From positions 1 through 37,047 of the forward strand of contig JBDSOK010000220.1 of the NCBI GenBank assembly GCA_039914845.1: a DNA stretch of 37,047 nt, given 5' to 3'. Origin of the DNA: Nitrospiria bacterium (lineage in GTDB: Bacteria > Nitrospirota > Nitrospiria > 2-01-FULL-66-17). The notes under the pieces were generated by a model. That model was not told the DNA's origin and did no database searches. It was given only the letters and a program-made list of their open reading frames with translations. Made by a program: the position numbers and the translations under genes. This document shows positions 386 through 37,047 of this stretch, in pieces (the first letter of the stretch is position 1; each line of letters begins with the position of its first letter).

Positions 386-1726
386 GTGTACGCCTCGATC
401 ATGACGGGGCTCGGCGACAGTTACCTTGGGGCGTTTGCGATTTTTCTCAAGGCCACCAATCCCCAGATCGCGTTCCTGGCCGCCGTGCCCCAGCTCTTGG
501 GATCGTGGTGTCAGTTCATCTCGGTCTGGTGGCTGAACCGGCTCAAAGAGCGGAAGGCCTTGATTCTGGCCGGCGTCTTGGGTCAGGCGCTGACCTGGCT
601 GCTCATTCTGGCCGCGCCGTTTCTGTTCCCATCGGGCGCCGTGTGGTGGCTCATCGTCGGGGTGACGCTGTACTTCATGCTCGGAAACTTTGCCGCGCCG
701 CCGTGGAACAGCTTGATGGGCGATCTGGTCGATCCCCGTCAGCGGGGGCGCTATTTCGGCCGGCGCAATCGCGCGATGAGCGTGGCGACGTTCGGCGCCC
801 TGATCGTCGGCGGGTTGATTCTGCACGAGGCGCAAGGGCTGGGGAAGGTGGCGGCGGGGTTCGTGGCGATCTTTGCGATCGCGTTGGTCGCCCGCTTGAT
901 CTCGGCCTATTACCTGTCCCGGATGATCGAGCCTCCCTACCAATCCCGCGCCGAAGACCGGTTTTCGCTGTGGCAATTCCTGCGCGACGGCCGCCGCACC
1001 AACTTCGGCCGGTTCGTGGCGTATATCGCCCTGGTGCATTTCGCCGTCCAAGTTTCGGCGCCGTTCATCGCGCCCTACTTGCTGCGGGACCTCCACATGA
1101 CCTATCTCCAATTCATGGCGGCCACCGCCGCTACGGTCGTGGCCCAGGTTCTCACGTTGCCCTGGTGGGGGCGTTTTTGCGATCGATTCGGGAACAAGCG
1201 TGTTCTGAGCCTGACCGGCTTACTCCTGCCGGTGATCCCCGTATTCTGGTTGTGTACGACCAATTTCTATGCCATCGTGGCAATTCAATTTTTCGCGGGC
1301 GCGAGCTGGGCGGGTTTTTCGCTGGCGATGGGGAACTTCATTTTCGATACCGTCTCACCTCCCAAACGCCCTCAATGTGTCGCCGTCTACAATTCGGCCA
1401 ATGCGGCGGGCATTCTTCTCGGCGCGGGGCTGGGCGGGTGTTTGATCCCTTGGCTGCCTCGCGAGTTTGCCGTCGCCGGCATCCATGTCTCGTTGGTATC
1501 CAATCTGCAGCTCCTCTTCGCCCTCTCCGCGGTCTTGCGCCTGGTCGTCGCGCTCAAGTTCCTCCCCATCATCCGAGAAGCCCGTATTGTCTCTCCCTTG
1601 GCCGCCAAAGACTTGACGGCCAGGCTCGCGGTTGTCCTGTTCATGGGCAGGCGAATGGTGGGACGAATCGGCCGGGCGATGAGTGTCTGGGTTGTTGTCC
1701 TCGGCGGCCTCGGCAAACGAGACTAA
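386..1726 (+). CDS. MFS transporter
   Basis: 446-aa ORF with many hydrophobic helices and an MFS-like loop motif (GDLVDPRQRGRYFGRRN). The start is uncertain: GTG at 386 is the first canonical start, but the frame is open from 206. Confidence 0.8.
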   Translation: MYASIMTGLGDSYLGAFAIFLKATNPQIAFLAAVPQLLGSWCQFISVWWLNRLKERKALILAGVLGQALTWLLILAAPFLFPSGAVWWLIVGVTLYFMLGNFAAPPWNSLMGDLVDPRQRGRYFGRRNRAMSVATFGALIVGGLILHEAQGLGKVAAGFVAIFAIALVARLISAYYLSRMIEPPYQSRAEDRFSLWQFLRDGRRTNFGRFVAYIALVHFAVQVSAPFIAPYLLRDLHMTYLQFMAATAATVVAQVLTLPWWGRFCDRFGNKRVLSLTGLLLPVIPVFWLCTTNFYAIVAIQFFAGASWAGFSLAMGNFIFDTVSPPKRPQCVAVYNSANAAGILLGAGLGGCLIPWLPREFAVAGIHVSLVSNLQLLFALSAVLRLVVALKFLPIIREARIVSPLAAKDLTARLAVVLFMGRRMVGRIGRAMSVWVVVLGGLGKRD

Positions 1727-16183: not shown

Positions 16184-16702
<519 letters not shown>

Positions 16703-17604: not shown

Positions 17605-18294
17605 GTGACGATGACCGCGGACGGAGGCCTGGCTCAGCGTCGCATGGTGCTTGAACAGCTCGAGGCCCGGGGTATCACCGACGCGAGGGTCCTGGCGGCG
17701 ATGGGGACGGTGCCGCGGCATCTCTTCGTCGAATCGGCCCTGGCCGATCGCGGGTACGAGGACCGGGCGCTGCCGATCGGCGAGCATCAGACGATTTCTC
17801 AGCCGTATATGGTGGCCTTGATGACCCAGACCCTCGCGCTGACCGGGTCCGAACGGGTGCTCGAGATCGGGACCGGGTCGGGCTATCAGGCCGCGATCCT
17901 CTCGCAATTGGCGGCCCGCGTCTTTACCGTCGAACGCGTTAAGCCCCTGGCCGATCGCGCCCGGGAGATCCTCGATCGACTGAAAATCTACAACGTGGTG
18001 GTCAAGCTCTTCGACGGCACCTTCGGCTGGCCCGACGAGGCACCGTTCGACGCGATCCTGGTCGCAGCCGGCACCCCGTCGATTCCGCGGCCGCTCATCG
18101 AGCAACTCAAAGACGGGGGGCGCCTGGTCGCGCCGGTCGGCGATCGCGTCGCCCAGCAACTCCATCACGTGGTCAAGCGGCAGGGACGGGTGGAGGTCAG
18201 CTTGTCGGCCGAATGTTCCTTCGTGCCCCTCATCGGCAACCACGCGTGGCCGGAACGGGGGGACTCGCCGCCCGTCGCCGGTTCCCGGCTATGA
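17605..18294 (+). CDS. pcm: Protein-L-isoaspartate O-methyltransferase
   Basis: VPRHLFV...[10 protein letters not shown]...[15 protein letters not shown] are PCMT motifs. The surE-pcm order is widely conserved. Confidence 0.9.
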
Positions 18295-19799
18295 ATCCAC
18301 GCGCAGCCGGGCTCTCGCTTCGTCTCTACAACACGATGAGCGGCGCCAAAGAGCCGTTGCGTCCCCGCGTGGCCGGACATCTCGGGATGTATGTCTGCGG
18401 GGTGACGGTGTACGACCTATGCCATATCGGCCATGCCCGTAGCGCGATCGTCTTCGACGTGTTGGCCCGGTATCTGGAGTCGCGCGGCGTGATCCTGACC
18501 TACGTCCGCAATTTCACCGACATCGACGATAAGATCATCGCCCGCGCGGCCCGCGACGGCCTCGGATGGCGCGAGGTCGCCGACCGCTACATCGCGGAAT
18601 ACTACCGCGATATGGATGCGCTCGGCATCCGCCGGCCCACCGTCGAACCCAAGGCCACCGACTACATTGCCGAGATGCTGGCGATCATCTCACGCCTGGT
18701 CGAGAAGGGGCTGGCCTATGCCGAAGGCGGCGACGTGTATTATCGCGTGGCGCAGTTTCCCACCTACGGGCGGCTCTCGCGGCGGCGGCTGGATCAATTG
18801 CGCGCCGGCGCCCGCGTGGAGGTCGATGAGAAAAAGCGCGACCCGCTGGACTTCGCGTTGTGGAAAGCGTCCAAGCCCGGGGAGCCGGCCTGGGACAGTC
18901 CGTGGGGGTCGGGGCGCCCGGGCTGGCACATCGAGTGCTCCGCGATGGCGATGGCGCACCTGGGGTCGAGCATCGATCTGCACGGCGGCGGGCAGGACCT
19001 CGCGTTTCCCCATCACGAAAACGAGATCGCCCAGTCGGAGGGCGCCACCGGGGTCGAGTTCGCCCGCTGTTGGATGCACAACGGATTCGTGACGATCAAC
19101 GAAGAGAAGATGTCCAAATCGCTGGGCAATTTCTTTACGATCCGGGAGATCGTGGACAAGTCGCCCTACGATCAAGACGTGACGGCGGAAGCGCTGCGGT
19201 ACCTCCTGCTCGGCACGCAGTATCGGAGTCCGATCGATTTTTCTGACGAGGGTCTGCGCAGCGCCAAAGTCGCTCTCGATGGCCTGTACGATGTGCTGGG
19301 CCGATTGCGCGAGCCCGAGGGCAAGCCGGTGATGGGTGCGGGGGACGAGGTGGCGCGACGGGCGATTGATGAGTTGGATCACCGGTTTGCCGCGGCAATG
19401 GATGACGACCTGAACACTCCGCAAGCGCTGGCCGCCATCCATCACGCGCGAACGGAGCTCAACCATGCGTTGGCGATCGGGATCAGCTCTGGGTTGGCGG
19501 AGGAGGCTGAATCGGGCATCAGAAGCACCGGACGGATTCTCGGTCTGAATTTTCACGCCGCGAGCCGGTACCGTGTCTCGTCCGATGCGACGACCGATAT
19601 CCAATTGCCCGGCCCTGCCGAACCCAATGTCCGACCGGTCGTGTGGTCCGACGCCGAGATTGATCGACTGGTGGAGGCCCGCAACGCCGCCCGGGCGCGC
19701 AAGGCGTGGGCGGAGGCCGATGCGATCCGCCGACAGCTGGCCGACGCGGGCGTGATCATCGAAGACCGGCCCGACGGCACGACGCGGATCAAGCGATGA
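18291..19799 (+). CDS. cysS: Cysteine--tRNA ligase
   Basis: [18 protein letters not shown] is the HIGH motif and KMSKSLGNF is the KMSKS motif. The ATG at 18291 overlaps the pcm stop (ATGA). Confidence 0.9.
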
Positions 19800-20557
19800 A
19801 CGACACCCGCGACGATCTGCTCTTCGGCGTCAACCCGGTCTCGGAGGCGCTGAAGGCGCGGCGGCCGATCCGCCGGGTGCTCATCCAGCGTGGACGCGGG
19901 GGACGCGAGATCGACGCCATCACCGCCGCGGCGCGCGAAGCGGGTGTCCCGCTGACGTTTGAGCCGCGGGAGGCGCTCGACCGCTTGACCGGCACGCCCA
20001 AGCATCAGGGCGTGGTGGCGCAGACGGCGGGGGCGGCGTATCGGCCGTTTGAAGCGCTCATGGCCGAGGCCGCGCAGCAACCGGGAGGCCTCTTCCTCGT
20101 CGTCCTGGACGGCGTGGAAGATCCGCGCAACCTGGGAGCGATTGCCCGTACCGCGGACGCGGTCGGCGCCGGCGGCCTGATCGTCCCCCAGCGTCGGGCC
20201 GCGGGGATCACCCCGACCGCGATGAAGGCGTCGGCCGGCGCGCTCGCCCACCTGCCGGTCGCCCAGGTCACCAATCTCGCCCGCGCGCTCAAGGCGCTCA
20301 AAGACGCGGGGTGCTGGCTGGTCGGTTTGGACGCGTCCTCCTCCACCGAGTACACCGCCGTGGATTATCGCGGTCCGCTGGCGGTGGTGCTGGGGCATGA
20401 GGGCGAGGGCGCTCGCGATCTCACACTCAAATCCTGCGACTTTCGCGTCCGCATCCCCATGCGCGGTCGTATGGAGTCGCTCAACGTCTCGGTTGCCGCG
20501 GGCGTCGTCCTCTACGAGGCCCTTCGCCAGCGCGGCACGAGCATCGCGCGGCATTGA
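19796..20557 (+). CDS. rlmB: 23S rRNA (guanosine-2'-O)-methyltransferase RlmB (SpoU/TrmH family)
   Basis: FGVNPV.EAL, LDGVEDPRNLGAIARTA, VLGHEGEG and ESLNVSVAAGVVLYE are SpoU motifs. The ATG at 19796 overlaps the cysS stop (ATGA). Confidence 0.85.
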   Translation: MNDTRDDLLFGVNPVSEALKARRPIRRVLIQRGRGGREIDAITAAAREAGVPLTFEPREALDRLTGTPKHQGVVAQTAGAAYRPFEALMAEAAQQPGGLFLVVLDGVEDPRNLGAIARTADAVGAGGLIVPQRRAAGITPTAMKASAGALAHLPVAQVTNLARALKALKDAGCWLVGLDASSSTEYTAVDYRGPLAVVLGHEGEGARDLTLKSCDFRVRIPMRGRMESLNVSVAAGVVLYEALRQRGTSIARH

Positions 20558-20600
20558 CAGGGCCTTGCCGCCCTGTTAGGGTCCCGCCGGAGGTTCTCTC

Positions 20601-20669
20601 ATGTCTACGATGCCCCATCGTCTGATTTCGCCCGTGCAGCCCCTCCTTCTCTCCGAAAGGGTGCCCTGA
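20601..20669 (+). CDS. 22-aa small ORF (MSTMPHRLISPVQPLLLSERVP) translationally coupled to the downstream B12-radical SAM gene
   Basis: GGAGG at 20589-20593 lies 7 nt before the ATG at 20601. The TGA at 20667-20669 shares one nt with the radical SAM ATG at 20669 (TGATG). I recognise no homology. Confidence 0.4.
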   Translation: MSTMPHRLISPVQPLLLSERVP

Positions 20670-22297
20670 TGCGTGTGTTCTTGATTCATGTCCGAGACCC
20701 TCAGTTTTACGCCCTGCCGGCGGCGACGCGCGCCAAGAACGGGAATATCCGGGTCATGGGCTTTCCGCCCATCGGCATCATGTCGCTCTCGTCCGTGCTC
20801 AAACGCGCGGGGCATGAGTGCGTCATGTTCGATCAGGCCAATCCGGACACGCCCAACGACGTCATCATTGACGAGATCCGGCGGCAGCGCCCCGCCCTCG
20901 TCGGCATGAGCTTCTTGAGCACCACCAGCTATCCCTACGCCAAGATCCTGGCCCGCCAGATCCGCGCGGTGGACACCACCGTCCGCCTGGCGTTCGGCGG
21001 CGTCTTCGCCTCGCTCAACGCGCAGTTGGTGAAGCTCCAATGCCCCGAGGTGGACTTTGTCTGCCGCGGCGACGGCGAACAGCTCATCCTCGATCTGGTG
21101 GAGCGGATGGACGCGCCCGAGACGGTGGAAAGCCTGACGTGGACCAAGGACGGGCAGGTGATCCAGAACCCCAACCGGACGACCGAGCGACACCTCGATC
21201 AATGGCCCTTTCCCGACCGCGAGAGCCTGCCGCTGGATTTCATCGAGTCGATGCCGCTCGACGTGCCGGCGGTACTGTCGATGGAGCGTTTCACGACGAT
21301 GCAGACCTCCCGCGGTTGTCCGTGGCCGTGCATCTTCTGCGACATCCCGATCTTCAATGACGGCAAGTGGCGGTTCCGCAGCGCCGAGCACGTGGTGGAA
21401 GAGTTCAAGTATCTCCAGAATCTCGGCTACGGCGCCGTCTACTTCGTCGACGATCACTTTCTCCTCAAGCCCAAGCGGATCGAGACGATGTGCCAGGGCC
21501 TCATCGACAACGACATCACCATCGAGTGGGGCGTCGAGGGGCGCGTGGACTCGGTCTGCCAGCATCTCTTTCCCATCATGGCCAAGGCGCACTGCCGGAC
21601 GATCATGTTCGGGATCGAGAGCGGTAGCCAGAAAATCCTCGATCGGCTCAAGAAGGAACAGACGCTGGAAGACGTCGAATCCGCGGTGACGAACGCCAAG
21701 AAGTCCGGCATCGAGATCGTCCACGGGTTTTTTACCGTCGGCAATCCCGACGAAACCGTCGAGGATATGCGGGCCACGTTCGACTTCGCGTCGCGGCTTC
21801 GGCTGGACACCTTCGGATTCAACCGGCTCTGCGTCTACCGCGGCACGCCCCTCTGGCAGGAATACGTGAAGCGCGGGGTGGTCAACGACGTCACCGATTG
21901 GTACAAGTACTTTAAGTGTTCGGAAATCGACCCGACCTGTCTGCCCGGCGAGGTCATCAACGCCGAGCGCAACGCCGGCCTGCGGCGGCTCTTTGTCTAC
22001 AAGCTGACGCATTACCCCATCCAGACCTTCAGGCTGCTGCGCCGCTTCCTCCGCTTCATGCCGCTGCGCGATGTGCTCTATCTGCTGACCAAGCCGTTCT
22101 TCGGTAAAAAGAGCGGCCAAACCAAGGCCGAAGTGCTGTCGCGCGCCGTCGAGCACGGCTCGCTCAAAGACGCCGCCGCCCAGCTCACGCAAATTTCCGA
22201 CGACGTGCTCGAACACGTGATCAACGAGTCGAAAGCCGAACGCCTCCGGATCCAACGCGAAGCGGAAACCGCGGCGACCGCAGGCCGCGGAGCCTGA
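20669..22297 (+). CDS. Cobalamin (B12)-binding domain radical SAM protein (class B), substrate unknown
   Basis: N-terminal B12-binding-like Rossmann segment (GFPPIGIMSLSSVLKRAGHEC..FD). CxxxCxxC cluster TSRGCPWPCIFCD. 542 aa with a hydrophilic C-terminal tail. Confidence 0.8.
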   Translation: MRVFLIHVRDPQFYALPAATRAKNGNIRVMGFPPIGIMSLSSVLKRAGHECVMFDQANPDTPNDVIIDEIRRQRPALVGMSFLSTTSYPYAKILARQIRAVDTTVRLAFGGVFASLNAQLVKLQCPEVDFVCRGDGEQLILDLVERMDAPETVESLTWTKDGQVIQNPNRTTERHLDQWPFPDRESLPLDFIESMPLDVPAVLSMERFTTMQTSRGCPWPCIFCDIPIFNDGKWRFRSAEHVVEEFKYLQNLGYGAVYFVDDHFLLKPKRIETMCQGLIDNDITIEWGVEGRVDSVCQHLFPIMAKAHCRTIMFGIESGSQKILDRLKKEQTLEDVESAVTNAKKSGIEIVHGFFTVGNPDETVEDMRATFDFASRLRLDTFGFNRLCVYRGTPLWQEYVKRGVVNDVTDWYKYFKCSEIDPTCLPGEVINAERNAGLRRLFVYKLTHYPIQTFRLLRRFLRFMPLRDVLYLLTKPFFGKKSGQTKAEVLSRAVEHGSLKDAAAQLTQISDDVLEHVINESKAERLRIQREAETAATAGRGA

Positions 22298-22531
22298 CGG
22301 CGGTTCGCGGTCTCCCCCCCGCCGAAGATCGTCTCGGATATGGGTGAACGGCGCCCCCACGGCTAATTCCGGCATTTACACGGGCTTCAGCCTGTTTGCG
22401 GTGCTCTCATGGTGGCCGACCACTCGTCTGACGGCGACGGCGGGAGGGGATGGGGATCGATGACCAACGCTGTTAAAGGCGCGTTATTATCGGCGCTAGT
22501 TCTCCCGGGCGTCGGGGAGTCTCAGTCACGT

Positions 22532-23458
22532 TTAAGACACTCTCCGCTGTTTCCTTCCCCAAATAGTCAGGCCTATCAAGCCTGCGCCAAAGAGTAGAAG
22601 CGAAGATGGTTCGGGGACCGATTTTATCGAGCTTCCGAGGAAACCGTACACTCGATGATCGCTGCCGAGGAAGGTTCCGACGATGTCACCGGCGTCATTG
22701 ATCCCGTAAATCATGGTCGAGTATGCACCAGGGACCGTAATTCCCCAGTTCACAGTTGATGAATCCCCGTCGATCACGAAACCACTATAACCCGTGCCTG
22801 TACTATCGCTATAGAACCCAGCGATATCTCCATGGTTATTGATCCCCATCGCTTGGGATGTTGTGCCAATTATGAGGCTTGTGGGTTCACCGCCGGCAAG
22901 CCTGATGAGACTTTGTGTCTGATCGGGGGTTCCTCCGACCACATCGCCGTGATCATTGATTCCATGGGCCGACATGTTGGGAATGGTGGTGGGCGTCCCA
23001 TCCTGGCCCTGCACGAATCCGTGACCAAGGCCTTCGCTGTCAGTGAATCGTCCGACCATCTCGTTTTGATTGTTAATCCCTCGCACTTGGGTAAATGTTT
23101 CACCAATCATGATGCTCCCAATGCTGCCATCGGCTGATCTCAAAAATCCCTGGGGAGTGCTAGCCACACTGAACCCCCCGACGATATCTCCGGAATCATT
23201 AATGCCCCAGGCTAACGTAAAATTTGCGCCGGGGAAATTGATGGTGGACAAGACGCCATCGCGAAGAAGAAACCCGTGTGTGCCGGTGGTATCATCATAG
23301 CCCCCCACAATATCTCCACTGTTGTTAATCCCATGTGCTTCGGTTCCTGAAGCATTGGGGGCCTCAATCGTTGTAAAGGTATAGCTAATAGCCTGTGCCA
23401 TCGGGGCGATTCCAAGAACAAGGCTAAGCGTCGTGAAACCGAGCATCTGCTGCCGCAT
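22532..23458 (-). CDS. Secreted HAF-type repeat protein with a C-terminal PEP-CTERM sorting signal
   Basis: Signal peptide ending AQA. Six GIN(N/D)xG(D/E)(I/V)VG repeats. The C-terminus VPEPSSLLLFGAGLIGLTIWGRKQRR is a PEP-CTERM signal. A strong SD (GAGGAG) lies 6 nt before the ATG. Confidence 0.85.
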   Translation of the reverse strand: MRQQMLGFTTLSLVLGIAPMAQAISYTFTTIEAPNASGTEAHGINNSGDIVGGYDDTTGTHGFLLRDGVLSTINFPGANFTLAWGINDSGDIVGGFSVASTPQGFLRSADGSIGSIMIGETFTQVRGINNQNEMVGRFTDSEGLGHGFVQGQDGTPTTIPNMSAHGINDHGDVVGGTPDQTQSLIRLAGGEPTSLIIGTTSQAMGINNHGDIAGFYSDSTGTGYSGFVIDGDSSTVNWGITVPGAYSTMIYGINDAGDIVGTFLGSDHRVYGFLGSSIKSVPEPSSLLLFGAGLIGLTIWGRKQRRVS

Positions 23459-23655
23459 TTTCGGCTCCTCTTTAAGGCGATCACGGAATGAACTTCGCGA
23501 GGTTCGATTTGGTGAATGGATATCTCTCAGTGGACAATGGAATTATAGGAAATACAAGTTGCGGAATTGTTGCGTGAGGAGCTGCGCCAAGCCAGACCGA
23601 ACACGAGCGGGAAATTTCCGTATACTAGGCTCCACCTATACTGCGGAGGCAATGT

Positions 23656-24156
23656 ATGACTCAATCTATCATCTTGCGGCTGACGATGCTTACGTCTTGT
23701 CTGGTGTTGACCCTGACGTTCTCCGCCATGGCGGTGTCATCGGAGGCGGCTCTGGACTTTTCCTTGAAGACTCTGGATGGGAAGACGATCACCAAGGCGT
23801 CGCTTAAGGGTCAGCCGACGTTGCTCATGTTCTGGGCCTCGTGGTGTGGGACTTGCCAGCAGGAACTGCCCAACGTGAAGGCGCTCTACGAACAGTACAA
23901 GGCCAAAGGCCTTCAGGCGGTGGCGATCGGGTTTCAGGATGAAGAGGCCGACATCCGGGAGTATGTTCAGGCACATCAGAGCACGTTTGTCTTTCCCGCC
24001 GCGTACGACACCCGAAATCAGATCTCAACACTCTTCAAGGTCCGGGGAACTCCGACGTTCGTCGTGCTGGATGCCCAGGGCCGGATTGCCCTGGTCCATA
24101 CCGGAGGCGGCGTCCTTCACAATCCCGCGTTCCAGAAGTTCATCCAGACCCTGTAA
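23656..24156 (+). CDS. TlpA/ResA-like periplasmic thiol:disulfide oxidoreductase (thioredoxin fold)
   Basis: Signal or anchor sequence followed by LLMFWASWCGTCQQELP (CxxC) and RGTPTFVVLD. GGAGG lies upstream of the ATG. Confidence 0.8.
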   Translation: MTQSIILRLTMLTSCLVLTLTFSAMAVSSEAALDFSLKTLDGKTITKASLKGQPTLLMFWASWCGTCQQELPNVKALYEQYKAKGLQAVAIGFQDEEADIREYVQAHQSTFVFPAAYDTRNQISTLFKVRGTPTFVVLDAQGRIALVHTGGGVLHNPAFQKFIQTL

Positions 24157-35999: not shown

Positions 36000-36025
36000 G
36001 GGGGCTCCTCGTCAGAGGAGCCCCC
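36000..36025. terminator. Bidirectional intrinsic terminator between convergent lpxC and the HARE-HTH gene
   Basis: GGGGGCTCCTC-gtca-GAGGAGCCCCC is a perfect 11-bp stem. A T-rich tract follows on the plus strand, and ATTTTCA follows on the minus strand. Confidence 0.6.
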
Positions 36026-36096
36026 GTTCTCTTTGCCGCAGACTACTTCTTCTTTGCAGCCTTTTTCTTCACGGGTTTTTTCGTCGCCAAGTGTCA

Positions 36097-36618
36097 TCAC
36101 CCCCTTTCGTCGGAGGCCCCTCCCGGGGCTACCAAGGTTTCGTCGACCAGGTCAAAGGTGTTCGGCGCCACTTTTCGAAACCGTTTATCGCGCCGCAGCG
36201 AGATGGCAATCGAGGTCACCGGAGTCTTGCCGCGGATCCGAACTCCGCCCTCGACCAGTTTTCGATACACTTCCTTCGCATGCATCGGGGTGCCGGCTTC
36301 CTTGAGTAAGATGCCGGCAGCCTGGGGCACGCTCATCCCGAAATACTTGCTTCGCCCAAACAGAATTTCTTGAGATTGGTCGACATCCAACGGGCCCCGG
36401 TTCTTATCCCGCTCACCCTCGATCGGGAGGGGCCGGGCAGCCACCCGCGCTTTTTCCTGCTCCACTCGATACAACGTTTCGGCCAGTTCCAGATACTTCT
36501 TAATAGTCTTGATTTCCTCCTCCAGCCGATCGCGCTTTTTCTGGAGTTCCTGCAGTTTGATTTTATAGGCTTTAATCCGCTGGTCGAGTCCGCCAAGGAT
36601 GTCCTGTAGCTCTTCCAT
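36097..36618 (-). CDS. Hypothetical protein: N-terminal coiled coil plus a C-terminal HARE-HTH-like winged-helix domain
   Basis: The heptad-like segment is LDQRIKAYKIKLQELQKKRDRLEEEIKTIKKYLELAE. The C-terminal part (VPQAAGILLKEAGTPMHAKEVYRKL...ISLRRDKRFRKVAPNTFDL) resembles HARE-HTH. The ATG at 36618 is preferred, since an AT-rich -10-like tract lies within the longer ORF. Confidence 0.6.
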   Translation of the reverse strand: MEELQDILGGLDQRIKAYKIKLQELQKKRDRLEEEIKTIKKYLELAETLYRVEQEKARVAARPLPIEGERDKNRGPLDVDQSQEILFGRSKYFGMSVPQAAGILLKEAGTPMHAKEVYRKLVEGGVRIRGKTPVTSIAISLRRDKRFRKVAPNTFDLVDETLVAPGGASDERG

Positions 36619-36694
36619 ACCGTCGTGACCCTTAGCATATATATAATCGATGAGCACGCATGTCTTTCGCTATGGAGCATAGCAAAGCTAATGC

Positions 36695-36722
36695 TTGTTG
36701 TCAAGCAAGAAATTGCTATATA
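36695..36722 (+). promoter_or_regulatory. Putative promoter (TTGTTG - 16 nt - TATATA) directed toward the partial lipoprotein gene
   Basis: Read directly in the AT-rich divergent intergenic region. It overlaps the inverted repeat TGCTTG-ttgt-CAAGCA (36692-36707). Confidence 0.3.
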
Positions 36723-36817
36723 CTACGAAACAGTCTTGCTATCAGTCGTTTTGATGGAATAGCTGTACTCCGGTGCTATTTGGGAATAATCCCGGTCAAA
36801 AGAGGATTCTCAGATTG

Positions 36818-37047
36818 ATGGGCCGCACGCATCAACCGTTATGGGAATGGGGTGTTGGGGGTCTGATTTTTTTGGCGCTCTCCTCCTGCCAGCCCTTGGG
36901 TCGGACGGGTCTGCCCGATCCCCCTGGGGTCGAATGGATTCCGGCGGTGACGCACCAATCCCGGATCACGCTTTCGGGAACCAAACCGCCGGGTTCGTTG
37001 CTACTCGTCGATGACGTGGAACAGGTGTCCCGCGATACGTCGGGCAC
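36818..37047 (+). CDS. Partial (5' end only) putative lipoprotein
   Basis: The ATG at 36818 follows AGAGGA. The signal peptide plus lipobox reads WGVGGLIFLALSSC. The ORF runs off the window, so it is not in the supplied track. It competes with the minus-strand ORF 36832-37047. Confidence 0.45.
   Translation, partial: MGRTHQPLWEWGVGGLIFLALSSCQPLGRTGLPDPPGVEWIPAVTHQSRITLSGTKPPGSLLLVDDVEQVSRDTSG

Follow-up and report, generated by a model that had tools for sequence, protein, structure and literature searches.

Some class B radical S-adenosylmethionine (SAM) enzymes are peptide methyltransferases, and a short open reading frame (ORF) coupled to a radical SAM gene is a standard genome-mining pattern for ribosomally synthesised and post-translationally modified peptides (RiPPs). 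Such an arrangement is present on a contig of a Nitrospiria bacterium, from a metagenome-assembled genome (GenBank assembly GCA_039914845.1, contig JBDSOK010000220.1, positions 1 to 37,047; this whole stretch of 37,047 nucleotides is referred to below as the window), where a 22-codon ORF lies directly upstream of the gene for a 542-amino-acid class B radical SAM enzyme and overlaps it in a TGATG stop/start junction. Short or overlapping upstream ORFs are also known from systems in which no peptide is modified. Thus, strict translational coupling was found for 13 of the 14 gene pairs with TGATG/ATGA overlaps tested in Haloferax volcanii and Escherichia coli, and it was proposed that a hairpin in the start region makes the second gene of such a pair reliant for its translation on the ribosome arriving from the first (Huber et al. 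2019, PMC6728339). In mycobacteria, leaderless short ORFs are documented regulators of the genes that follow them (Canestrari et al., bioRxiv 10.1101/834739), and near-cognate codons, which are relevant to the relatives of the locus analysed here, initiate translation in E. coli at 0.01-2% of the AUG level (bioRxiv 10.1101/063800). Here we show that the position of the 22-codon ORF is kept in a small clade of relatives, that its sequence is free, and that the encoded peptide evolves like neutral DNA. Based on this, we put at about even the chance that it is a promoter-proximal leader ORF that would act through translational coupling and would not encode a functional or modified peptide.

In a preliminary description, the locus was said to contain a GGAGG Shine-Dalgarno (SD) sequence, a 7-nucleotide spacer, an ATG at 20601, 22 codons and a TGATG overlap with the 542-amino-acid class B gene, whose own SD sequence was judged to be weak. 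All of these elements are indeed present at those positions (Table 1), the weak SD being AAGGG. Direct reading of the plus strand gives TTCTCTC as the spacer and places a second in-frame ATG of the 22-codon ORF at 20610; the TGA of the short ORF (sORF) at 20667-20669 has its A in common with the enzyme ATG at 20669. By itself, this combination of GGAGG, ATG, ORF and overlap is not statistically unusual. The window contains ten GGAGG-N5-9-ATG sites (7.9 ± 2.7 expected), two of which are the first start of an ORF of more than 100 amino acids, and five others open ORFs of 25-74 amino acids. Moreover, 17% of the dinucleotide shuffles of the 90-nucleotide leader of the window hold an out-of-frame ORF, opened by ATG and 10 or more codons long, that ends on or next to the enzyme start.

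The comparison on which the following is based comprised 165 orthologous loci (numbered with the prefix L), 80 of them from species-representative genomes, 80 from metagenomes and 5 from exact-protein look-ups, whose enzymes are 78-94% identical to that of the window. An ORF was counted as comparable to that of the window when it was ATG-initiated, out of frame, upstream, at least 10 codons long and ended between -6 and +16, and the numbers expected were derived from shuffles. Similar leaders and a common promoter-like element define a window clade, which contains the window, L001-L006, L009, L081-L083, L089, L090, L100 and L115, plus L161 and L162. Of 15 clade loci, 11 contained a comparable ORF where 3.7 were expected, and L161 and L162 are two further clade loci that have one. 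Outside the clade the count was 20 of 139 loci, against 18.3 expected, and hence beyond this small Nitrospirota clade upstream ORFs occur at chance level. The preliminary description had named the lack of a conserved upstream sORF in homologous loci as a finding that would refute its proposal of a RiPP precursor; family-wide this is what is found, and only the position of the ORF within the clade is kept. No small ORF within 600 nucleotides on either side was common to more than 30 of the 165 loci, and when 2838 small ORFs from the vicinity were compared by blastp-short, the window peptide remained a singleton.

Within the clade, the frame of the sORF ends at +1 or at +16. The former is the case in the window and in L003, both of which have TGATG at +1. 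In the nearest relatives (L001, L161 and L162), the site of the overlap reads CTCATG and the sORF continues to a stop at +16, which is forced by the Leu-Ile codons of the enzyme. From these sequences, the TGATG overlap is derived in the window and was gained independently in L003. In L005 the upstream ORF is in a different frame and ends at -16.

No purifying selection on the 22-amino-acid peptide was detected, either by comparing leader with fourfold-site divergence or by codon-position bias. In relatives whose leaders align without gaps, the leader and the fourfold sites of the enzyme gene, compared within each genome pair, had diverged to the same extent (0.09/0.11, 0.11/0.11, 0.32/0.38 and 0.50/0.51). 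Differences in the sORF frame are spread evenly over the three codon positions (e.g. 12, 15 and 9), and the corresponding pattern for the first 29 codons of the enzyme is, for example, 1, 1 and 12. The codon changes in the sORF frame are mostly non-synonymous (e.g. 15, versus 2 synonymous). The leader of the window itself aligns to those of its relatives with 69-76% identity when gaps are allowed, 18-28 gap positions being needed, and its peptide has only 6-8 of 22 residues in common with relatives whose enzymes are 93-95% identical. Thus, in the clade the position of the ORF is kept and its sequence is free, the peptide evolving like neutral DNA.

Alignment of the upstream regions of the clade revealed the pattern TTGACR, 17-18 nucleotides, TAnnnT, directly after whichever gene is located upstream (that for RlmB in the window, a HAD hydrolase gene in L161 and L162). 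TTGACR is present at the equivalent site in the window and 14 other loci (L001-L006, L009, L081-L083, L089, L100, L161 and L162). Mean pairwise identity is 94% for the -35 hexamer and 72% for the -10 hexamer, and 31% for the 12 nucleotides further upstream. A conserved sigma-70-type promoter ahead of the enzyme gene is therefore predicted for the clade. In the window, the rlmB stop codon (TGA, 20555-20557) is embedded in the TTGACA hexamer, and in L161 the stop codon of the unrelated upstream HAD hydrolase gene likewise lies inside the -35 hexamer. A generic promoter and terminator scan of the window gave no match; because its -10 element, TAGGGT, fits only 3 of 6 consensus positions, the scan missed the promoter, and the promoter call thus rests on conservation in the clade. 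Transcription is predicted to start at about 20589 (~20587-20591), on the GGAGG.

The ATG of the sORF occupies at least three registers in the clade (-68, -80 and -83/-89), and two arrangements relative to the promoter can be distinguished. In L001, L003, L004, L005, L009, L090 and L100 it is located 6-9 nucleotides past the -10 element, a geometry typical of leaderless mRNAs. In the window, L002, L083, L161 and L162 it is located 18-20 nucleotides past the -10 element and behind GGAG(G), the gap in the window being 18 nucleotides. L081, in which the ATG of the sORF is gone, still has GGAG(G).

Table 1. Positions in the window of the 22-codon ORF and the features around it
Feature	Coordinates	Strand	Basis and remarks
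RlmB-type 23S rRNA 2'-O-methyltransferase gene (upstream gene)	19706..20557	+	NCBIfam TIGR00186, 221 bits versus cutoff 160; Pfam SpoU_methylase, SpoU_sub_bind
-35-like hexamer TTGACA	20554..20559	+	predicted from conservation
-10-like hexamer TAGGGT	20577..20582	+	conservation across the clade; 17 nucleotides past the -35 hexamer
SD-like GGAGG	20589..20593	+	sequence; 7 nucleotides ahead of the sORF ATG, at the very 5' terminus of the predicted mRNA
Leader ORF, 22 codons + TGA, encoding MSTMPHRLISPVQPLLLSERVP	20601..20669	+	sequence
Weak SD-like AAGGG of the radical SAM gene	20657..20661	+	7 nucleotides ahead of the enzyme ATG, within the sORF
TGATG stop/start overlap of sORF and radical SAM gene	20667..20671	+	sequence
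542-amino-acid B12-binding (class B) radical SAM enzyme	20669..22297	+	Pfam PF02310, PF04055

Coupling presupposes that the start of the enzyme gene is known. In 159 orthologous loci the N-terminus MRVFLIHVRD lines up with residue 1 of the window enzyme, the start position is conserved in all compared loci, and in the window the enzyme ATG is preceded by an in-frame stop at -114, the interval containing no start codon in that frame. The start at 20669 is therefore correctly placed. A frameshifted N-terminal extension was considered and rejected: the longer homologue calls P0004, P0005, P0022 and P0056 all begin ahead of an Ile-initiated N-terminus, with extensions that show no relation to one another. 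The start codon itself varies. In the clade it is ATT in six loci (L005, L009, L089, L090, L100 and L115) and ATC in four (L002, L004, L006 and L082), and these loci have GAGCC where the members with an ATG start have GAGG. Mismatches in codons 2-29 of the enzyme number 126, 31 and 819 at the three codon positions, and by this pattern the N-terminus is clearly translated from near-cognate codons and under strong purifying selection. The sORF is present in seven of the ten near-cognate-start and six of the seven ATG-start clade loci, so that these counts do not bear on a link between the sORF and a weak start codon.

As regards the RNA itself, the minimum-free-energy fold of the window leader pairs CCCCU (~20640-20644) with the AAGGG of the enzyme gene, and its stability is no better than that of shuffled sequence (z = +0.64). 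Consensus folds of two subclades of the clade amount to -0.2 and -6.3 kcal/mol, with almost no covariation. Searches of Rfam gave no leader RNA family in a scan of the whole window at gathering thresholds, none on the leader at E <= 10, and no leader match in 15 related loci and one foreign leader. Hence a structured leader RNA was rejected for the window on the grounds of the z value, the consensus folds and the lack of an Rfam match, and attenuation by a leader peptide was likewise set aside, as neither a sensor tract nor a terminator was found.

Taken together, these results make the fallback offered in the preliminary description, a regulatory upstream ORF or coupling device, the explanation that we favour: in the clade the position of the ORF is kept, its sequence is not, and its stop lies on or just past the enzyme start. 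Several lines of evidence point to a leader ORF. Its position, unlike its sequence, is maintained beyond the expectation from shuffles; for each of these ORFs a plausible mode of initiation can be named, either after the -10 element or behind GGAG(G); the promoter hexamers stand out as conserved islands and the enzyme start is weak in the clade; the coupling at TGATG/ATGA overlaps and the mycobacterial leaderless sORFs cited above provide precedents; and no conserved RNA structure competes with it in the window clade. In the mechanism that we propose, for which we infer the transcription start, the translation of the sORF and the coupling from sequence features, the mRNA would start at about 20589 from the TTGACA at 20554 and the TAGGGT at 20577, and ribosomes would load at GGAGG and the ATG at 20601 to translate the 22 codons. 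The translating ribosome would melt the weak pairing over the poor AAGGG of the enzyme gene and would terminate at the TGA overlapping the enzyme ATG by one base, whereupon termination-reinitiation, or coupling by unfolding, would set the amount of enzyme. In the relatives, a leaderless AUG 6-9 nucleotides past the -10 element would start the same device at the predicted 5' end of the transcript, and the device would end 15 nucleotides past an SD-less AUU or AUC start, where ribosome delivery would matter most.

This last aspect can be extended. Near-cognate codons initiate poorly, so that delivery of ribosomes by a leader ORF would be useful at AUU and AUC starts. It is possible, though we consider it rather doubtful, that the 5'-end ORF of the clade, which is often leaderless, is a ribosome-delivery device that lets the enzyme start by reinitiation from an SD-less AUU or AUC codon, and of which the window has an SD-led, TGATG-overlapping form. 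Such a device would be one case of family-wide tuning of initiation, along with leaderless AUG, CUG with a strong SD, and a hairpin leader elsewhere.

Several points weigh against coupling through the ORF. In the window, the SD may lie partly outside the transcript, because the predicted start falls on the GGAGG itself. In L081, whose enzyme shows 94% identity, ACG replaces the ATG of the sORF; L082 has no such ORF and a conserved enzyme; L089 has only an 11-codon ORF; L006 has a 24-nucleotide leader and an ATC start with neither an SD nor a leader ORF; and L165 is near-leaderless and has no such ORF. As several clade members without the ORF keep a conserved enzyme, coupling is not obligatory. 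Furthermore, a leader like that of the window would by itself carry such an ORF with a probability of 0.17, and a substitution-only drift simulation from a common ancestor gave a probability of 0.003-0.66 that at least seven of nine lineages keep the ORF, depending on the ancestor and the divergence assumed. Given this wide span and the common descent of the clade loci, selection on the presence of the ORF is no more than suggested. Many of these points also speak for a neutral relic, a rival to which we assign a lower, yet considerable, probability: positions 20589-20668 would be a 5' untranslated region with a chance ATG and open frame, inherited from the clade ancestor and decaying without effect on expression. 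Its loss from L081, L082, L006 and L165 has had no visible effect; within genome pairs the leader has diverged as far as the fourfold sites, shuffled window leaders readily yield such an ORF, the simulated probability reaches 0.66, and GGAGG-N-ATG occurs at chance frequency, about half of the instances preceding short, presumably spurious ORFs. On the other hand, a relic does not readily account for the threefold excess in the clade, or for an ATG that appears in at least three registers, each of them right after the -10 element or behind GGAG(G). With most ancestors the simulated probability was 0.003-0.08, and as the simulation ignores insertions and deletions, which are frequent in these leaders (18-28 gap positions), their inclusion would lower retention further.

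The remaining explanations concern the peptide or the RNA as such, and we consider all of them improbable. The least probable of all, in our view so slight as to be practically negligible, is the RiPP precursor/maturase pair that the preliminary description had put forward, in which the 22-amino-acid peptide would be the substrate of the enzyme, e.g. for C-methylation, as in PqqA/PqqE and in polytheonamide-type or ApyD-type systems. Although a short ORF that directly precedes a class B radical SAM gene and overlaps it is what such a pair would look like, and ApyD is among the weak NCBIfam matches of the enzyme (127 bits, cutoff 750; TIGR03975 77 bits, cutoff 282), an enzyme conserved over 165 loci stands here beside a singleton peptide, which differs at most positions even where the enzymes are 93-95% identical and shows neither codon-position bias nor a preference for synonymous changes. 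The ORF is in another frame in L005, is lacking in L081, L082, L006 and L165 as well as in most loci of the family, and does not co-vary with the enzyme; 26 Nitrospira loci leave no space for a precursor gene (see below), and no small ORF is widely shared nearby. PqqD/RRE or SPASM domains were not found at E <= 1e-3, and the neighbours are housekeeping genes without RiPP accessory functions. This comparative pattern is, as far as sequences can tell, irreconcilable with the peptide being the substrate of so highly conserved an enzyme. Somewhat less remote, though still improbable, is a sensory leader peptide or riboswitch, in which stalling or ligand binding would switch the enzyme gene via alternative RNA structures. 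The gene family seems to be leader-regulated, since leaders of other lineages hold a conserved hairpin, 72% paired, that beats slid controls, and the window fold pairs CCCCU with the AAGGG SD; yet MSTMPHRLISPVQPLLLSERVP contains no run of any single amino acid, no terminator-like site was found, the z value of +0.64 and the lack of a clade-shared structure or of an Rfam match at E <= 10 argue against it, and the GGAAUCCCGGUUAC loop of those other leaders is not in the window leader. We give marginally less credit still to a free-standing small protein with an organism-specific function of its own, unrelated to the enzyme. Lineage-specific small proteins do exist and an SD-like site with an ATG is available, but the relatives show neutral evolution, nearby small ORFs include no homologue, and the product has no recognisable hydrophobic or signal feature.

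Family-wide, initiation of the enzyme gene takes several forms that were observed alongside the above. Near-cognate start codons are present in 19 of 159 loci (CTG in nine, ATT in six and ATC in four), and TTG is used in 13 and GTG in 6. The CTG-start loci (L061, L070, L074, L076, L078, L079, L144, L150 and L155) have a strong AAGGAG 5 nucleotides upstream, an in-frame stop 27-78 nucleotides upstream and no canonical in-frame start nearer than 24 nucleotides; because of this stop and the lack of a nearby canonical start, translation appears to begin at CTG itself. At near-cognate loci, gene callers cut the protein to Met30 or extend it upstream. In 26 Nitrospira loci (L015-L017, L019, L021, L023, L025, L026, L030, L033, L037, L038, L041-L043, L069, L096, L101, L102, L106, L107, L113, L114, L122, L130 and L131), all of which use ATG, the enzyme ATG is located 5-6 nucleotides past an extended -10 element (TGnTAnnnT; TGnTAGGNT). 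Owing to this distance the radical SAM mRNA would be leaderless in these loci, with no room for a precursor gene.

Leaders of other lineages have a different organisation (L020, L029, L048, L075, L099, L117, L160, L052, L065, L077, L093, L086, L119, L054 and others). About 95 nucleotides upstream of the enzyme gene they have GGAUCGGC-CUCC..GGAG, which is followed by a stem with a conserved GGAAUCCCGGUUAC loop and by GGAGGUG-AUG. In the stem, 72% of cells are paired and there are four double-change pairs; it performs better than slid controls and has no Rfam match. This hairpin leader may be an undescribed cis-regulatory RNA, whose 5' CCUCC could sequester the SD. Neither the loop nor the hairpin is present in the window leader.

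Another side observation concerns the clade leaders. The octamer GAATCGAG, at -14 to -7 ahead of the enzyme start, is nearly invariant in both subclades (L001, L002, L005, L009, L081, L089, L090, L100, L115, L161 and L162) while other leader sequence drifts neutrally. Because it survives the frame change in L005, the constraint on it acts on nucleotides. It could be an SD remnant (GAGG), form a hairpin with the ATT start (GAAU/AUUC), or be a protein-binding site. The homologous stretch of the window, 20655-20662, is GAAAGGGT.

The enzyme is a genuine member of the class B radical SAM superfamily, with an N-terminal cobalamin-binding domain (PF02310, amino acids 33-140, 2.1e-17) and a radical SAM core (PF04055, amino acids 212-374, 2.3e-23) that contains the CxxxCxxC cluster motif as CPWPCIFC (217-224). 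These were the only Pfam domains found at E <= 1e-3 (a cryptic RRE was not sought at structure level), and the C-terminal ~140 amino acids had no Pfam match. The preliminary description had recognised no specific subfamily, and this is borne out: no NCBIfam cutoff was reached, every match lying far below it (besides ApyD and TIGR03975, BchE 146 bits versus 481, HpnJ 142 versus 578, PhpK 139 versus 600 and HpnR 76 versus 650). The closest solved structure is AprD4 (6fd2, 1.4e-24). At E <= 1e-20 the enzyme has 3044 matches, and the clusters at 78-94% identity number more than 100. The enzyme thus belongs to an uncharacterised, highly conserved orthologue group (78-94% identity) from Nitrospirota, NC10 and other bins; a literature search on this group in Nitrospira gave nothing relevant. 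There are no conserved operon partners from which its substrate could be inferred. An Arg/Lys-rich hydrophobic stretch, LRRLFVYKLTHYPIQTFRLLRRFLRFMPLRDVLYLLTKPFFGKK, is present in the C-terminal region (residues ~441-483, window ~21990-22120). It is speculation that it resembles an amphipathic membrane-associating segment and hints at a lipid or membrane-bound substrate, and equally speculative that mid-chain methyl fatty acids, in Nitrospira and NC10, are the substrate. A 599-amino-acid antisense ORF (20576-22375, minus strand) shadows the entire radical SAM gene; because the domain matches and the conservation are all on the plus strand, it is an artefact of high GC content and not a gene.

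With regard to the neighbourhood, the co-directional upstream genes encode the housekeeping proteins SurE, Pcm, CysS and RlmB, and the gene of a convergent PEP-CTERM protein is followed downstream by a spermidine-synthase-like gene, PepA and NagZ. No RiPP accessory genes (protease, transporter or further tailoring enzymes) are among these neighbours. The neighbours of the enzyme gene are not conserved across the compared loci, and there is no conserved partner; many Nitrospira loci have upstream genes that resemble, by sequence motifs only, those for succinyl-CoA synthetase and a flavoprotein, which are not in the window. The longest CysS (18213-19799) and RlmB ORFs overlap by 94 nucleotides, and since the match to the RlmB hidden Markov model begins at residue 36-37, the true rlmB start is probably ~100 nucleotides downstream of 19706. 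Elsewhere in the window, a tRNA gene is located just upstream of surE (16626-16699, plus strand; Rfam, 64 bits), and the GC content, otherwise 0.62-0.68, dips to 0.53-0.58 at 22001-24000, around the PEP-CTERM/HAF-repeat gene (22532-23458, minus strand) and the next intergenic region, and at 36001-37000, the contig end. In L009, a c-di-GMP-I riboswitch (1286-1371, plus strand; 43.8 bits) lies ~3.6 kb upstream of the radical SAM gene.

These results remove a false RiPP lead, and they show that the genome-mining pattern used to find RiPPs can arise from an ordinary leader ORF. Comparison of leader with fourfold-site divergence, together with codon-position bias, settles the RiPP question without experiments. 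If coupling does take place, the locus would be a non-actinobacterial example of 5'-end leader ORFs that control a downstream gene. The AUU, AUC and CUG starts on one conserved protein form a natural set for the study of near-cognate initiation, and the enzyme is a worthwhile target for functional work. The variety of initiation modes and the possible hairpin leader, both outside the window, may be of greater interest than the ORF originally flagged.

How, then, does the locus compare with the described systems? The B12-binding domain and the very short ORF directly upstream recall the RiPP pairs (PqqA/PqqE, ApyD, TIGR03975) and their peptide C-methyltransferases; unlike in those pairs, the peptide is unconserved and does not co-occur with the enzyme, RRE and SPASM domains as well as protease and transporter genes are missing, and the scores of the family models are far under their cutoffs. 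The best sequence matches of the enzyme, BchE, HpnJ, PhpK, AprD4 and OxsB, have in common with it the N-terminal B12-binding domain and the CxxxCxxC core, but it reaches only ~20-30% of the cutoffs of the BchE, HpnJ and PhpK families and its C-terminal ~140 amino acids are without a Pfam match. As in the mycobacterial leaderless sORFs (10.1101/834739), the predicted transcripts of seven relatives begin with the AUG of an unannotated sORF that would act in cis. In contrast to them, the sORF of the window is SD-led, with GGAGG and an ATG 18 nucleotides past the -10 element, leaderless geometry being confined to relatives; the window has neither a poly-Cys or other sensor tract nor a stable duplex that sequesters the ribosome-binding site (z = +0.64), and the phylum is Nitrospirota, with transcription starts that are predicted. 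Finally, the locus resembles the coupled overlapping pairs (PMC6728339) in that the ORF is co-directional, its TGA and the ATG of the following gene have one base in common, the weak SD lies inside the upstream ORF and a hairpin is predicted in the start region. It differs from them in that the nearest relatives have their stop 15 nucleotides past the start, without an overlap, that coupling in the window is predicted from sequence, and that the upstream partner is a 22-codon ORF of unconstrained sequence instead of a protein-coding gene, for which reason the purpose of coupling would be delivery or regulation, and not stoichiometry.

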